Below are positions 33,623-39,799 of a DNA stretch of 64,000 nucleotides, piece after piece. The notes under the pieces were generated by a model. The model made no database searches, had not been told where the DNA came from, and saw only the letters and a list, made by a program, of their open reading frames with translations. The stretch lies in assembly GCF_056746865.1 (NCBI RefSeq), contig NZ_CM163382.1. One strand, given 5' to 3'. The stretch's first letter is position 1; each line of letters starts with the position of its first letter. A program made the translations under genes and the position numbers.

Positions 33623-33678
33623 GTGCTCCGTTTTCAGGTTGCATATATCTCGTTGAGTTTAGCAATGTTCGCTCCAGG

Positions 33679-33738
33679 CACGAAGCGAGCAAGTTACCTA
33701 AGTTGAAGGTCCGCAGGGAGCGAGGAGCAGAAGTTCGA
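33679..33738 (+). repeat. about 60-bp imperfect direct repeat, copy 1 (upstream of paralogue B)
   Basis: cacgaagcgagcaagttacctaagttgaaggtccgcagggagcgaggagcagaagttcga; about 70 percent identical to copy 2, with perfect blocks cacgaagcga, gaaggtccg, gagcgagga, gaagttc. Confidence 0.55.
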
Positions 33739-33843
33739 AGCACATCATGAAGTAAGTTTTAAAATGGGAGATAACTTGCTTTTACATATTTTCCAATGCA
33801 ATATCATACCCTTTTAAAAATAAATCAGATATATGAGGTGAAA

Positions 33844-34866
33844 ATGTCTAGTCTTAATTTATTCGATGATGTCGTACCTTTAGAAAAACAGCATCCAATA
33901 TATATAATGATGAAAAAGGAACGCTATGAACCGGAGAGAGAAGTAATTAACCAATGGGCAAAAGGATTTCTAGACAGGGATAATAAGTTTACAAAAGAAT
34001 TTCAAACAAGTTTTGAACCTTGCCTATGGGAGTTATATCTTTTTGCTTATCTTAAAGAATTGGGTTTAAGGAACGACTTTTCATACGATGCACCTGACTT
34101 CATCGTCAATGAACCTGGGTTTTGCATTGAGGCAACCATAGCCCTTCCGGCACAAGGAGCCCCTGGAGCGCATGGTTTCAGTACGGAAGATATGCCAAGA
34201 GATTTTAATAAGTTTAATTCTGAGGCATCTATTCGACTTAGCAATAGTTTTATATCAAAGGTAAAAAAATTAAGATCGAGATATTCTCAACTTCCTCAAT
34301 GTAAAGAAAAACCTTTTGTTATCGCCATAGCTTCCTTCGACCGACCTTTTGCGCACTTTGCCGCAGCCAGACCCATACTTGCAACATTATATGGTTTATA
34401 TCATGATGAAGAAGCAACCATTGAATCAGGATCAAAGAGCATAATTTCTTATAACGTTGAGGCTGCGGTAAAAAAAGAAAATGTTAATATAGCCATGGGG
34501 TTATTTTGCACGCCTGATTATTCGGATGTAAGTGCTGTGATTTATAGTAGTTTAGCTACTTGGGGAAAAGTAAGAGCTTTGGCGGACAATCCTTCAGCTC
34601 TAACAATTTATACAACCTTTACCCCAAGAGAAAATTCATTATATCCTAAAGTTCATCAAGCCAAAAAAAATGATTATATAGAGCATCTGGCAGATGGATT
34701 GTATATTTTACATAACCCATTTGCCAAGTATCCGTTGCCTAAAGAGACGCTAAGCCACCCTAGAGTAGCACAAGGTTATGTTGAATCTGATGGATACGTC
34801 AATTTTGTAGCGCCAGAGGATTTTCTTTTATTGCGTTTTTTACAATCATTCAATCTTAAAGATTAG
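33844..34866 (+). CDS. hypothetical protein, same unassigned family as 10733..11905 (paralogue B); candidate defence or abortive-infection protein
   Basis: AT-rich; GAGGTG Shine-Dalgarno before ATG 33844 (ORF opens at 33796); shares the motif blocks listed for paralogue A; flanked by the about 60-bp direct repeats. Confidence 0.7.
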   Translation: MSSLNLFDDVVPLEKQHPIYIMMKKERYEPEREVINQWAKGFLDRDNKFTKEFQTSFEPCLWELYLFAYLKELGLRNDFSYDAPDFIVNEPGFCIEATIALPAQGAPGAHGFSTEDMPRDFNKFNSEASIRLSNSFISKVKKLRSRYSQLPQCKEKPFVIAIASFDRPFAHFAAARPILATLYGLYHDEEATIESGSKSIISYNVEAAVKKENVNIAMGLFCTPDYSDVSAVIYSSLATWGKVRALADNPSALTIYTTFTPRENSLYPKVHQAKKNDYIEHLADGLYILHNPFAKYPLPKETLSHPRVAQGYVESDGYVNFVAPEDFLLLRFLQSFNLKD

Positions 34867-35065
34867 TAAATATGGTCATATTTATTTACTTTACATAGAT
34901 AAAGTCTAAAGATGGCACTTCCTTTAAACTCAACTACCTATGATTTAGAGTGGTTGTCCGGCCTGCTTCCGTAACCGTTAGTTCGACTGACGAGATTCCT
35001 GTTTCCCTCTAAAAGACTTGGTTGATTAAAACAGGTCACCGAATAGCCATTTAGTCCACTTTGAC

Positions 35066-35125
35066 CACGAAGCGACCGAACTAACTGAGCAGAAGGTCCG
35101 TTATGAGCGAGGAACGGAAGTTCAC
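35066..35125 (+). repeat. about 60-bp imperfect direct repeat, copy 2 (downstream of paralogue B)
   Basis: cacgaagcgaccgaactaactgagcagaaggtccgttatgagcgaggaacggaagttcac; see copy 1. Confidence 0.55.
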
Positions 35126-35196
35126 AGTTGATCTCACACCCAAATAGTCGCATTACTAACATTGCTGCGTGTTAATCAACAGGCAGCAGGTCACTC

Positions 35197-36294
35197 TTAT
35201 TTTCTTGATAGGCTTTGTATAGTATGAATAAACCTTACAAAGTTATGAAGAAGCTCGTGATTTTCCTCTGATATACCATCTGGGTCAAAGTGCATCACGT
35301 CGTTACGAATTATTCTGACCTTGTCGAGCTCTTTAGTAAATATTTTCTTATCTATTTGAAGTTCGGTTTTTTTCCACAATTCTGGATTTTCAAAAAGTCG
35401 TATATATTCCCCAAAGGTTAAATCTGCGACCGACTCTATAACCCGTTCGCTGTCAAATGGATTAACGATGCTAACAAGCTCATCTTTCGTAAATTTTCCA
35501 TCTATCAGCTTACGAATATGATTTTCGATTTCAGATAGTAAAAGAAAAGGTTCTGACAACTGTCTGAACTGAGAACTAAGATCGGTAGTAGTTATAATCC
35601 CACTAATTCTTTGATCAGAAGATCGCACTAATACGTAAGCATACTCAATAATTCTAGGTAGTGCAGAAAAAATAGAGTCACTGGCGTTTATTTCCCTGTG
35701 TGGCTTCATATAATCACGCACAACCGCAGATTCTGATTGGGTCAACGCTAGTATTGGAGCAATGCTTTCCCAACTAATAACACCTTTAACATCTCGCTCG
35801 CTGGTCATAACGGGTAGTTGAGAGTAGTCATGCCGCAACATCAATGTGATGGCTTCTGTTAATGTAGCGTCAGGTTTCACGGTCACTAGTTTAACATCCG
35901 ATGCTTCGAGTCGACTAACACGGAAGGCTGGCTCGGAAACTGCACCGGAAATTAGTTCATCATGCGGCTGAAATACTGTTTCAGGTGTAGCCAATTCGGC
36001 GTTACTTGATTCGGTTTCTTCATGTAAACATTCACCTGCTTCATGGGGCGTTGCGTCATTCCCCGGAGGTGCATAGATAGTAATTTTTGCATCCAGCGGC
36101 ACACTATCAAAATCAGGTTCGGTTTTAACTCCTAAGCTTTCTAATGCTTTGCGAATTTTGTACGCAACCATGTAGCCTCGACGCTCTGCGCCAAACCAGC
36201 TTATGAATTCTCGCACTGATACTGGGTTTGAGGACATACCGTCTTTTAGTTCACGAAGGATTTCGTTAAGTCTTTCTCGATTTTCTACTGCCAT
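35197..36294 (-). CDS. CBS-domain pair protein with C-terminal HEPN-like (Rx4-6H) domain; predicted nucleotide-regulated RNase-type effector
   Basis: 365 aa; CBS-like segments (TLTEAITLMLRHDYSQLPVM...VKGVISWESI and ISGIITTTDLS) followed by a helical C-terminal region with RNDVMHFD; AT-rich. Confidence 0.6.
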   Translation of the reverse strand: MAVENRERLNEILRELKDGMSSNPVSVREFISWFGAERRGYMVAYKIRKALESLGVKTEPDFDSVPLDAKITIYAPPGNDATPHEAGECLHEETESSNAELATPETVFQPHDELISGAVSEPAFRVSRLEASDVKLVTVKPDATLTEAITLMLRHDYSQLPVMTSERDVKGVISWESIAPILALTQSESAVVRDYMKPHREINASDSIFSALPRIIEYAYVLVRSSDQRISGIITTTDLSSQFRQLSEPFLLLSEIENHIRKLIDGKFTKDELVSIVNPFDSERVIESVADLTFGEYIRLFENPELWKKTELQIDKKIFTKELDKVRIIRNDVMHFDPDGISEENHELLHNFVRFIHTIQSLSRK

Positions 36295-36940
36295 AAAATT
36301 TTCTCCATGTAGGTTGTCGGCTACTGTTAGGTTTCAATCTTGATTCAGGCTTCTCACGCTTTTTTTAAAATCTGGACAACGAGGCTGCACTGACTTTTTC
36401 AGCTCACCTCAGATTGCACCATCCCATACACATAGCTCAGATTCCTAATGTTCAGTATAAGGAGGCCAGAATACGAATTGCCCTTACCGCTAGTGCCAGC
36501 GCGTTGAGTTTAGTAGATGCCTTATTCATTTAGAATTTGATAAAAATACAAGACTCGGACAACAAGCTGCAATATTAATCGTTATTTTTCCACTCGAGGC
36601 CCACCGTCCGTTTCTGGCACAGGGCTGCTGTTGCAGCCCTGAAAACCTTAGACTTCAATCGATTCAAAGATCTCTAATGCATCATCTACTTCAATACCCA
36701 GATAACGGACTGTGCTTTCCAGTTTCTTATGGCCCAACAGAAGTTGGATCACCCGAAGATTCTTAGTTTTCTTGTAGATAAAGTAGGGTTTTGTTCTTCT
36801 CATGGAACGTGTGCTGTAAAGCGAATCTTCGAGACCAAGCTTTCCTGCCCACCCATGAAAGATTCGGTTGTATTGTAGGGTTGATATGAACCGCCCCGGA
36901 AATCCTGGAGACTAAACTCCCTGAGAAAGAGGTAAACAGG

Positions 36941-37267
36941 ATGACTAAAAATACTCGTTTTTCCCCCGAAGTCCGTCAGCGGGCGATTCGTATGGTTCTG
37001 GAAAGTCAGGATGAATATGACTCACAGTGGGCGGCAATTTGTTCCATTGCCCCAAAGATTGGCTGTACGCCGGAGACTCTGCGTGTCTGGGTTCGCCAGC
37101 ATGAGCGGGATACCGGGGGCGGTGATGGTGGGCTCACCAGCGCTGAACGTCAGCGTCTGAAAGAGCTGGAACGTGAAAATCGTGAACTGCGCCGCAGTAA
37201 CGATATCCTTCGCCAGGCTTCCGCTTATTTTGCGAAGGCGGAGTTCGACCGCCTCTGGAAAAAATGA
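36941..37267 (+). CDS. IS3-family transposase OrfA (HTH)
   Basis: 108 aa [57 protein letters not shown]...; ends in an A6 run that overlaps the OrfB start (candidate -1 frameshift site). Confidence 0.9.
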
Positions 37268-38154
37268 TGCCACTGCTGGATAAGCTGCGTGAGCAGTACG
37301 GGGTCGGACCGGTATGCAGCGAACTGCATATTGCCCCGTCAACGTATTACCATTGTCAGCAACAGCGACATCATCCGGATAAACGCAGTGCCCGTGCGCA
37401 GCACGACGACTGGCTGAAGAGAGAGATACAGCGCGTATACGATGAAAATCATCAGGTGTACGGTGTGCGTAAAGTCTGGCGTCAGTTGTTACGGGAAGGA
37501 ATCAGGGTGGCCAGATGTACAGTGGCACGTCTCATGGCGGTTATGGGACTTGCCGGTGTTCTCCGGGGTAAAAAGGTCCGTACGACCATCAGCCGGAAAG
37601 CCGTTGCCGCAGGCGACCGCGTAAACCGTCAGTTCGTGGCAGAACGACCTGACCAGCTGTGGGTGGCTGATTTTACTTACGTCAGCACATGGCAGGGCTT
37701 CGTCTATGTGGCGTTTATCATTGATGTGTTTGCCGGATACATCGTGGGGTGGCGGGTCTCATCGTCTATGGAAACGACATTCGTGCTGGATGCGCTGGAG
37801 CAGGCGTTGTGGGCCCGTCGTCCGTCTGGCACCATCCATCACAGCGATAAAGGCTCTCAGTATGTGTCACTGGCCTATACGGAGCGACTAAAAGAAGCCG
37901 GATTACTGGCATCAACAGGGAGTACAGGCGACTCGTATGACAACGCGATGGCTGAGAGCATCAATGGTCTTTACAAAGCGGAGGTAATACACCGTAAGAG
38001 CTGGAAAAACCGTGCAGAAGTGGAACTGGCCACACTAACGTGGGTGGACTGGTATAACAATCGACGATTGCTGGGAAGGCTGGGCCATACTCCTCCGGCA
38101 GAAGCAGAAAAAGCTTATTATGCTTCCATCGGAAACGATGATCTGGCAGCCTGA
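37264..38154 (+). CDS. IS3-family transposase OrfB (DDE integrase core)
   Basis: 296 aa with DDE-type catalytic core (...[30 protein letters not shown]...[10 protein letters not shown]...[15 protein letters not shown]). Confidence 0.9.
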
Positions 38155-38923
38155 GTTCACAGATAAAACACTCTCCAGGAAACCCGGGGCGGTTCAATAT
38201 GTGCTGATTAGTTCCGATACGAGACCGGAACAAGAAGTCTTTATTGTGCAAATAATCAAGCTTTATCAATGCAGCAATAGCTTCTCTTGTTCCTTTGGTT
38301 ATCTCAAATTGCACAGGGCTACCGGTTTTCTGTTGCAACACCGTTGCTCTGCTTGAAACCAAGCGACCATATGCCACATCAGATACTTTGAGTTTGACCA
38401 GATCACAGCCTCGAAGCTTACTGTCCAGGGCCATATTGAACAGAGCTAAATCGCGCGTTTTGCCTTCCAGTTCAAGCCGGATTCGGGTCCCCCAGATATG
38501 AGATATCTGAAGTGGTCTTTTTTGGCCGATGATACGGTCTTTGTTCCACGGTGACGTGTTCATACTCAAATCTCCTGCAATGTGGGAGATTTGAGTATGG
38601 TTGTCCCTTATGAGCGCAGGCTGTGTGAAAACACTCACCAAATACTAAAATGTATGAGGTTATGCAAAATCTGGAATCAATCAGCTGATTATCAGAGTCG
38701 AATTTTACGTAGGGAAGATATTTTCAGCTCTGTTTTAGGCCATTTCTGCACTCAAAAACGTTTTCACACAGCCGCGGTCAGATCGCAATCTTGCACCACA
38801 ATCTGGTACGAGTCAGGCAAGCATTTGGGGTGAAAGCCTGTCCTGAGTGAGAATCTAACCAAGCATTGTGTTATGTTTAACAACTGGAGTAGACTACAAA
38901 ATCAATTAATTAAGGATCTTGAG

Positions 38924-39499
38924 ATGACTATAGCCGCAGCTTGGGTAAGAACTTTAAGAAATTGCAAAGAATTGATTGTAGTATCAGATAGTAGATTAAA
39001 TGGTGGTATGAAAATGGATTGTGGGCAGAAGATAATAACTCTGCCTCGTTCAGATGCTTTCATATGTTTCGCAGGTGATACTAGTTGGGCATATCCTTTG
39101 ATGCATCAAGTGGCATCAGCAATTGATATATATGATCGTTGCTCCTCACGAGCCCAAGATATTAAAGAACTCAAAACCCATATTCTTAAAATTTTTGAAC
39201 GACTGAGAGAGCAAATTCACGATGCCATAGGTGACATGGATATACCCGATGCAAAATTCATATTCGGGGGATATTCATGGATAAGAAAAAAATTCATGAT
39301 TTGGCACATCACCTACCAAAAGAGTACCAACTCTTTTCGTGCGGATCCTGCACGTGAAATATATGGATCACCTGTTGTATTTACTGGTGATGAAGAACAT
39401 GTAATTGTAGCTAATGCTATGCTTCGTGAAAAATTAAAATCAAGAGGGAAGCTGGATAATTTAGAAAAAGGCATGAAAAATACTGTTAAATTTGAATGA
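38924..39499 (+). CDS. HslV/proteasome beta-subunit-like Ntn-hydrolase-fold protein (tentative)
   Basis: From ATG 38924 (AAGGA Shine-Dalgarno; ORF opens at 38873) the product MTIAAAWVRTLRNCKELIVVSDSRLNGGMKMDCGQKIITLPRSDAFICFAGDTSWAYPLMHQ parallels HslV ([61 protein letters not shown]), with Thr directly after the initiator Met; AT-rich. Confidence 0.45.
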   Translation: MTIAAAWVRTLRNCKELIVVSDSRLNGGMKMDCGQKIITLPRSDAFICFAGDTSWAYPLMHQVASAIDIYDRCSSRAQDIKELKTHILKIFERLREQIHDAIGDMDIPDAKFIFGGYSWIRKKFMIWHITYQKSTNSFRADPAREIYGSPVVFTGDEEHVIVANAMLREKLKSRGKLDNLEKGMKNTVKFE

Positions 39500-39523
39500 G
39501 AACCATTTGAAGTTATTCGAGAC

Positions 39524-39799
39524 ATGTTTTACAAAGTTAATGAAAGTTCTTATGAATTTAAAAACTCATCAATTGGAGGCGCGCCCCAAATCCTAAAAAT
39601 CTATGAACATTTATCAAGTCAAAAACTTGGTGTTCTGTGGAAGAACAGGATGGATAGTGAACCGAACATATATTTATCTGGCCGGAGGCTTACTAATTAT
39701 GGTCCGCGAGATATGTGGATACTAGACCCTGAAAAACTGATAACGTACAATCCATTGAAAAGTAATCCTGATAAGGAGGTAATTAATCAATTCATTTAA
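39524..39799 (+). CDS. small hypothetical protein (91 aa) downstream of the HslV-like gene
   Basis: ORF only; same strand and AT-rich context. Confidence 0.3.
   Translation: MFYKVNESSYEFKNSSIGGAPQILKIYEHLSSQKLGVLWKNRMDSEPNIYLSGRRLTNYGPRDMWILDPEKLITYNPLKSNPDKEVINQFI

Follow-up and report, generated by a model that had tools for sequence, protein, structure and literature searches.

In several mobile genetic elements, a hairpin formed in cis in the leader of the mRNA acts on the synthesis of the recombination enzyme. Fold-back inhibition of read-through transcripts was reportedly described for IS10 and IS50 by Davis, Simons and Kleckner in 1985. In the leader of IS200 tnpA, a stem-loop has been shown experimentally to sequester the Shine-Dalgarno (SD) sequence and to block binding of the 30S subunit, so that the enzyme stays scarce and is shielded from external transcription (PMC4513863). 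Here we describe a probable hairpin of this kind, encoded by a perfect palindrome at positions 38561-38599 of a 64-kb stretch of contig NZ_CM163382.1 (RefSeq assembly GCF_056746865.1), referred to below as the window. The palindrome overlaps the start codon of a minus-strand gene encoding a 200-aa tyrosine recombinase (PF00589). A first-pass annotation of the window had proposed that it may be a recombination site, a terminator or a translation-control element. The results presented below support the last of these options, since the SD sequence and the start codon both lie in the stem and their masking is conserved in relatives with differing sequences. We estimate the probability that the palindrome is a leader stem-loop of the recombinase mRNA, which masks the SD sequence and AUG and would keep the enzyme translationally silent, at about 0.7.

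As in IS200 (and IS10/IS50), the hairpin is a cis-acting leader structure of a mobile-element recombination enzyme and pairs the SD sequence. Two features of an IS200-type leader were found: the SD sequence (GGAG, 38575-38572) and the start codon (ATG, 38563-38561) are located within the stem of the sense strand, and the pairing is retained among homologues despite sequence change. In contrast to IS200, the hairpin belongs to the gene of a tyrosine recombinase instead of a transposase, its stem also includes the AUG, and neither an antisense RNA nor an Hfq site nor a terminator hairpin further upstream was identified at this locus. Moreover, the two leaders share no sequence relationship, the hairpin has no Rfam match, and its repressive effect is predicted from sequence.

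The palindrome and its predicted fold

The inverted-repeat search reproduced exactly the coordinates of the previously annotated element, i.e. two arms of 15 nt each, CATACTCAAATCTCC (38561-38575) and GGAGATTTGAGTATG (38585-38599), which are 100% complementary and separated by a 9-nt spacer. On the minus strand the element reads 5'-CATACTCAAATCTCC-CACATTGCA-GGAGATTTGAGTATG-AACACG. Its 5' arm (38599-38585) contains the anti-AUG CAT and the anti-SD CTCC, the loop CACATTGCA occupies positions 38584-38576, and the 3' arm (38575-38561) carries the SD sequence, an 8-nt spacer and the ATG, so that the reported overlap with the integrase start codon was confirmed. The ATG at 38563 is the start used in RefSeq and in all homologues, and we consider it the true start of the recombinase, because the homologues begin with MNTSPWNK; a longer open reading frame (ORF) initiated by TTG at 38641 was therefore rejected as an artefact. 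The hairpin is thus of help in annotation, as it fixes the start codon at 38563 and not at TTG 38641.

Among the perfect short-range inverted repeats of the window, this 15+9+15 palindrome is the longest; the longer short-range repeats are few, imperfect and of the A/T-flanked terminator type. The first-pass annotation regarded such a palindrome as improbable by chance, which is borne out by the absence of any match to the 15-9-15 pattern in dinucleotide shuffles of the window and by simple arithmetic (64000 x 18 loop sizes / 4^15, or approximately 1e-3 perfect 15-bp hairpins expected per window). Structure prediction, which the same annotation had recommended, returned a stable stem: the 121-nt region folds as RNA with -38.8 kcal/mol (z = -4.2), with the hairpin as the main feature of its centroid structure, and the hairpin with short flanks has a predicted energy of -23.9 kcal/mol. 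The G+C content of the stem is approximately 40%. A scan of the window with the Rfam covariance models produced a single match, to the ALIL pseudoknot of an insertion sequence (IS; described below), and nothing at the hairpin.

A search for further copies, also recommended previously, revealed no second copy of the palindrome in any related locus examined. Related loci totalling 595 kb were also scanned with a hairpin covariance model, which matched at recombinase starts and nowhere else. The hairpin is not a dispersed repeat, since its occurrence is limited to recombinase starts and their remnants. Two findings that had been named as arguments against a function, membership of a common repeat family or absence from otherwise identical islands, do not apply to an element that accompanies only the recombinase gene.

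Conservation of the pairing in relatives

A one-genome-per-species scan provided 80 loci encoding relatives of the recombinase (57-93% identity) in Enterobacterales, marine Gammaproteobacteria, Pseudomonas, Xanthomonadales and Burkholderiales. In nearly all of these loci a hairpin of different sequence is located directly upstream of, or at, the ATG. The dimensions of the hairpins vary (stem of 6-18 bp, with 6-12 bp in most clades; loop of 3-15 nt; CTCC-GGAG distance of 7-12 nt); constant are the pairing of the SD sequence with an upstream CTCC and of the ATG with an upstream CAT. The leader hairpins have the form CTTGTCCTCC-8-GGAGGACAAG in Pseudomonas, GTCCTCC-7-GGAGGAC with an outer CATGC/GCCATG stem in Stutzerimonas, GATCTCCCTTC-4-GAAAGGAGATC in Paraburkholderia and CCATCCCCT-6-AGGAGATGG in Xanthomonadales, and the marine form combines an inner GTCTCC/GGAGAC stem with an outer CCAT/ATGG stem. 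A simple alignment of 73 leaders shows hardly any variation in the upstream CA(T)nCT, and the same holds for the upstream CAT and for the T that is opposite A or G.

The reading of the palindrome as a masking leader rests on the persistence of the SD/anti-SD and ATG/CAT pairing, which is significant when compared with neighbouring genes and with shuffled sequences. The mean pairing probability of the SD-to-ATG segment was 0.70 for the recombinases and 0.53 for 118 other SD-bearing gene starts of the same loci, and values of at least 0.6 were reached by 84% of the recombinases versus 30% of the control starts (Mann-Whitney p = 7e-16; the loci are phylogenetically related, so p-values overstate their independence). 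Complementarity of the upstream 34 nt to the SD-ATG segment, scored against shuffles of the same 34 nt, gave a mean z of -1.95 (-0.10 for controls), with p <= 0.05 in 50% of the recombinases and 4% of the control genes. In the Enterobacterales and marine subset, 84% of the cells pair, as against 30-44% when the partners are slid by 1-3 columns, and four pairs show changes on both sides. A matched change (CAT/ATG to CAC/GTG) was also detected in a recombinase remnant of Escherichia coli (L123). The reach of a covariance model derived from the Enterobacterales and marine subset was limited to close relatives and a few leaders of Stutzerimonas.

Proposed role of the hairpin and alternative explanations

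On the minus-strand mRNA, the SD sequence and AUG of the 3' arm would pair with the upstream anti-SD/anti-AUG arm, so that 30S loading would be blocked on transcripts containing both arms and the recombinase would remain silent. The likely purpose is insulation of the recombinase from transcripts reading in from the upstream cassette, because the gene belongs to a module flanked by exchangeable cassettes (see below) and no conserved promoter precedes the hairpin. A transcript of this kind must cross the candidate recombination site adjacent to the hairpin (the A site, 38603-38626) and would hence carry the full 15-bp stem. The upstream ORF is co-directional with the recombinase gene in 37 of 76 loci (and divergent in the other 39), which makes read-in transcription a realistic hazard. 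The block could be lifted by weak transcription from an internal start beyond the 5' arm, by processing or by helicase action. Two candidates for an internal promoter, with CATACT as the -10 element or with the arrangement GGGACA-17-CACATT, received little support: they have at best 7 of 12 matches, a conserved -35 element is missing from other clades and the promoter scan was negative. If GGGACA-17-CACATT were nevertheless a weak promoter, its transcripts would lack the 5' arm. In itself, the hairpin would represent a further case of a mobile-element enzyme silenced by masking of the ribosome-binding site, and it offers an explanation for the scant expression of such recombinases.

Besides the relatedness of the compared loci, several observations weigh against masking as the function of the palindrome. 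The promoter scan detected no sigma-70-like promoter in positions 38300-39000, and the presence of the 5' arm on the recombinase transcript is presumed. RNAalifold, applied to the plain MAFFT alignment of the 73 leaders, yielded no consensus structure, since the register of the stems shifts from clade to clade. Stem mismatches comprise 20 G-T and 24 A-C combinations, so this test for G-U tolerance, which would be specific to RNA, shows no strand asymmetry and does not separate pairing at the level of RNA from pairing at the level of DNA; for this reason we infer RNA-level pairing from the identity of the paired parts and not from wobble asymmetry. Finally, the 15 perfect base pairs present in E. 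coli go far beyond the needs of masking, which leaves room for a second role.

A rival explanation is that of a double-stranded DNA site, bound by the recombinase (as an accessory site or as part of its recombination site) or by a dimeric regulator (as an autoregulatory operator). The perfection of the palindrome, its very strong conservation in E. coli, its position 3 nt from a candidate core site and a mismatch tally that does not favour RNA are all in keeping with this explanation. We nevertheless regard it as improbable, as the sequence of the hairpin arms is not conserved across the family, unlike that of the core-site arms (GnCCGCT), and only the SD/anti-SD and ATG/CAT parts persist, while the range of stem lengths (6-18 bp) and CTCC-GGAG distances (7-12 nt) is at odds with a fixed protein footprint. 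For the same reasons, the hairpin was rejected as a core site of the lox, FRT or dif type, which it resembles in outline (15-9-15). Its spacer has 9 nt here and is variable in relatives, instead of a fixed 6-8 bp; its arms are unlike GTCCGCT and differ fully between clades, while the neighbouring GnCCGCT arms persist; no second, partner copy is present in any locus; and the breakpoints lie outside the hairpin, 17 nt away within the A site. The proposal that the palindrome is a recombination site consequently finds no support for the hairpin itself and was close only in terms of position, since the candidate core site begins 3 nt away.

The surplus of perfect pairing would also be explained if the hairpin acted in RNA processing or stability (as a target of RNase III or a 5' stabilizer) rather than as a plain ribosome block, and the second conserved hairpin behind the stop codon, which means that the mRNA is bracketed by structures, points in the same direction. 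With stems of only 6-12 bp in most clades, too short for RNase III, and with the SD sequence and AUG always being the paired parts, which processing would not require, we find this explanation no more convincing than a DNA-level function. A transcription terminator, as also put forward in the first-pass annotation, or an insulator, acting on the neighbouring cassette or on read-in transcripts, would fit a strong hairpin at the boundary of the module but is very unlikely, given that no T/U run follows the stem on either strand (plus, GGTTGTCCCTTATG; minus, AACACGTCACCG) or in relatives, that the stem is AT-rich (approximately 40% G+C) and that the terminator scan makes no call at this position.

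The recombinase gene as part of a mobile module

The recombinase gene and its hairpin were found in about 870-917 of 5426 complete E. coli genomes, both in chromosomes and in plasmids and in many unrelated neighbourhoods, including the hokD-dicB region of Qin-type prophages, CP4-like islands, an IS26-rich plasmid and the ypjA-adjacent island of the window. Together they form a conserved unit of approximately 0.7 kb, with unrelated, exchangeable cassettes in either orientation on its two sides. Homology between the contexts ends in every case 17 nt past the hairpin, at 38616/38617, and on the other side approximately 45 nt past the stop codon; beyond both limits the DNA is unrelated. The stretch behind the stop codon includes the second of the conserved hairpins (36620-36641, minus strand; gene-strand sequence CAGGGCTGC-AACA-GCAGCCCTG), which directly follows the stop codon and overlaps a B-type site (described below). 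A hairpin is present at the equivalent position in all relatives, its sequence varying by clade and its structure being retained (e.g. GCGACGGTC-7-GACCGTCGC in Pseudomonas).

Within E. coli the 73-nt hairpin region is better conserved than the coding sequence (CDS): 745 of 922 records show at least 95% identity, versus 379 of 875 for the query containing the CDS. The hairpin copies with the strongest decay are located on recombinases pseudogenized by internal stops or frameshifts. Both findings are in line with masking as the function of the hairpin. Three matches of 73-84 bp restricted to the hairpin were considered as solo recombination sites and rejected, two of them (L006 and L007) being internally deleted recombinase pseudogenes and the third (L005) a truncated remnant. 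The sequence GACAACC...GGTTGTC around the gene was likewise discarded as a terminal inverted repeat; one of its positions can be A, C or G, and the repeat is probably due to chance. In two recombinase remnants (L006 6026-6064 and L123 3012-3050) the 9-nt loop is inverted relative to its flanks, with CACATTGCA in place of TGCAATGTG in the orientation of the window, which suggests flipping of the loop between the perfect hairpin arms.

Candidate recombination sites and exchangeable cassettes

Loci of the E. coli type are punctuated, around the recombinase gene and its neighbours, by near-palindromic sites of the form GTCCGCT-N10-AGCGGAC. Two kinds can be distinguished by their central 6-mer, A (GAGCGA) and B (TGGCAC or TTGCAC), the full forms being GTCCGCT-nnGAGCGAnn-AGCGGAC and GTCCGCT-nnTGGCACnn-AGCGGAC, respectively. 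B sites fold with arms of 9-10 bp around a 6-nt centre, i.e. with the geometry of Xer-type core sites. The usual arrangement is a junction unit of approximately 66 bp, consisting of B, an 18-nt linker (close to GATATCACTGAGCTGAAG) and A, in which each core site is self-palindromic and folds separately. The recombinase gene is nested within such a unit, in the order B half-site, 3' hairpin, gene, 5' hairpin, 3 nt and A site. Distant clades follow the same plan with related arms; in Stutzerimonas, GACCGCT-ATTGGCCGGTT-AGCGACC lies upstream and an inverted copy downstream. The hairpin is a fixed landmark of a recombinase module that is edged by candidate sites and placed amid exchangeable anti-phage cassettes.

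In the window, the A-type candidate core site, GTCCCTT ATGAGCGCAG GCTGTGT (38603-38626), contains the homology break at 38616/38617. Its recombinase-proximal arm and the central GAGCG are conserved, its distal arm has been lost, and between contexts the sequence diverges directly after GAGCG(A). The B-type half-site, GTCCGTT TCTGGCACAG (36606-36622), comprises the left arm and the centre and marks the 3' boundary of the module. Two junction units were identified further to the left, J2 at 35054-35119 (a B-like site at 35054-35077, the 18-nt linker and an A site at 35096-35119) and J1 at 33667-33732 (B at 33667-33690, a linker and A at 33709-33732). The 64-kb window contains no further site that is clearly of the A or B type.

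The distal arm of the A site is replaced in the window by a 155-bp element (38619-38773), which begins exactly at the expected position of that arm and is bounded by perfect 14-bp inverted repeats, GGCTGTGTGAAAAC (38619-38632) and GTTTTCACACAGCC (38760-38773). It is single-copy and 100% identical in all 128 genomes that have it; an insertion resembling a miniature inverted-repeat transposable element and a rearranged site are candidate readings. An invertible promoter switch of the FimB type was rejected, as 128 of 128 genomes match a 601-nt query in one orientation. A hybrid site was noted beside the deleted recombinase of L007 (6060-6140), where the left half of A is joined to the centre and right arm of B; a linker and a full A site come next. 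The appearance of the hybrid suggests that A and B were joined aberrantly or that a deletion took place.

Site-bounded arrays were observed in the window (33667-38626) and at L002, L003, L096-L099, L110, L120 and L121. Evidence of crossover at the sites is provided by a 1.2-kb cassette encoding a 314-aa hypothetical protein, which recurs with 99% identity in three unrelated settings: it is the second cassette of an array in a Qin-type prophage (L002), it lies in a CP4-like island where the surrounding 7 kb contain no small recombinase (L120), and in another strain it directly adjoins the A site of the recombinase (L121). In the three-way alignment, identity begins exactly at the A-site GAGCGAGG and ends exactly at the B-site CTTGGCACA, and the homology breaks fall inside the central 6-mers. 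Furthermore, the prophage backbone common to thousands of genomes starts at a B site, which is abutted by differing cassettes. Isolated junction units also occur elsewhere (H169-H173). A search of viral contigs for the exact junction pattern, which is too strict, gave no matches.

The cargo of the cassettes includes experimentally validated single-gene anti-phage systems. In the window these are a 340-aa PD-T7-5-like protein (33844-34866, plus strand; PADLOC PDLC04110, E = 8e-102) and the CBS-HEPN protein DS-11 (35197-36294, minus strand; NCBIfam NF053863, 404.9 bits against a cut-off of 260), which belongs to a described anti-phage system (PMC13092281). PADLOC further assigned PD-T7-1 to the cargo of L002 and HEC-08 to that of L003. 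The DS-11 cassette has a single context in E. coli, and the evidence of mobility comes from the 1.2-kb cassette.

With less than even confidence, we propose that the hairpin is the expression gate of an undescribed exchange system, in which Xer-like recombinases of approximately 200 aa, which form thousands of 90% clusters in Gamma- and Betaproteobacteria and are embedded in two-site (A/B) junctions, may carry cassettes with one anti-phage gene each (PD-T7-1, PD-T7-5, DS-11, HEC-08 and others) from one prophage, island or plasmid to another by crossover inside the central 6-mers. If this is true, nature would have its own version of the two-site cassette exchange used in engineering, defence genes would have a second cassette platform that does not depend on integrons, and there would be a mechanism to account for the hopping of single-gene defence systems among the prophages, islands and plasmids of E. 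coli. The combination of A and B sites would then be a simple search key for new defence genes, and the recombinase, small at 200 aa and served by two short orthogonal sites, would be worth trying as a tool for genome engineering. The literature that was searched contained no description of the recombinase, the A/B sites or the hairpin, but it covered subscription journals poorly, so a prior description is possible.

Comparison with other site-specific recombination systems

The two-site array with its embedded recombinase looks like a variant of integron-like or pdif-like systems. At the level of the system, as in integrons, a tyrosine recombinase is located beside its own site and next to mostly single-gene cassettes, with imperfectly palindromic junctions of approximately 66 bp, and the cassettes that have no integrase nearby resemble clusters of attC sites lacking integron-integrases (CALINs). 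The anti-phage cargo is another shared feature, defence cassettes in sedentary chromosomal integrons being the subject of an earlier study (bioRxiv 10.1101/2024.07.02.601686). The differences are substantial. The recombinase has 200 aa and is Xer-like, whereas IntI has approximately 320 aa, and its length leaves no place for the IntI-specific insertion. The best NCBIfam match is the XerA/integron-integrase model, with 46.3 bits against a cut-off of 220; the protein scores far below every NCBIfam cut-off, and the nearest solved structures are XerA, XerD and XerH, hence its identification as an integron integrase was rejected. In addition, in place of an attC of the R''-L''/L'-R' type the junction has a pair of independent 7-10-7 core sites that differ in their central 6-mers, in which the cassette boundaries lie, the recombinase gene is situated inside the junction unit, the cassettes occur in both orientations, and the crossovers map to the double-stranded central regions of two sites.

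The pdif sites have an 11-6-11 structure and are used by the host XerC/XerD. The pdif modules of Acinetobacter are similar to the arrays described here in being discrete gene modules edged by short Xer-type sites, in occurring in varied replicons and in having breakpoints at the sites. In contrast to pdif, the present sites are of different sequence, occur in A/B pairs and are accompanied by a dedicated 200-aa recombinase. Inverted arms around an asymmetric centre, and two variants differing only in the centre that flank an exchangeable segment, are reminiscent of the heterospecific sites of Cre/lox; that arrangement, however, is engineered, and Cre is a 343-aa protein with an N-terminal domain. 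In size (approximately 200 aa) and in having no separate N-terminal DNA-binding domain the recombinase resembles FimB and FimE. An invertase of this type was rejected because the hidden Markov models gave only 20.8 and 16.1 bits, where 222 and 221 are required, and no invertible segment was found, the 155-bp element at 38619-38773 having the same orientation in 128 of 128 genomes.

The recombinase gene of the window and additional observations

The integrase had been annotated as disrupted, which is correct: an IS629-like element of the IS3 family (36889-38196, plus strand) splits the gene into a 5' fragment (38197-38563, minus strand; PF00589) and a 3' fragment (36648-36888, minus strand; stop codon at 36648-36650). 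The element contains orfA (36941-37267), orfB (37264-38154) and a strong ALIL frameshift pseudoknot (37222-37338; 121.5 bits in Rfam). Its junctions with the recombinase gene show a 5-nt overlap, consistent with a short target duplication. As the gene is split by the IS and dead, the hairpin of the window is a relic, itself intact. The allele of this locus (L001 7662-8264) also carries the substitution H148R, with Arg replacing the conserved histidine of the HxxR motif (TRSMRR versus THSMRR). The same substitution is present in the uninterrupted allele found at the locus in 128 genomes, and the recombinase may already have been inactive before insertion of the IS.

The cassette to the right of the recombinase (38873-39799) contains ORFs of 208/191 aa and 91 aa, for which no match was obtained in Pfam, NCBIfam, PHROG or PADLOC, and no B site that would close the cassette was detected before ypjA. 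Because of its position in an array of defence cassettes, it is a candidate for an unknown anti-phage gene.

The recombinase family is huge; at 90% identity it comprises no fewer than 8000 clusters, and E < 1e-10 was reached by 6407 representatives. In marine Gammaproteobacteria (L008-L013), an 80%-identical recombinase with the same 3' hairpin is flanked by an arsenic-resistance operon on one side and copper-resistance genes on the other; the island also contains a primase. The proximity of these resistance genes indicates that the family is not confined to defence cargo.

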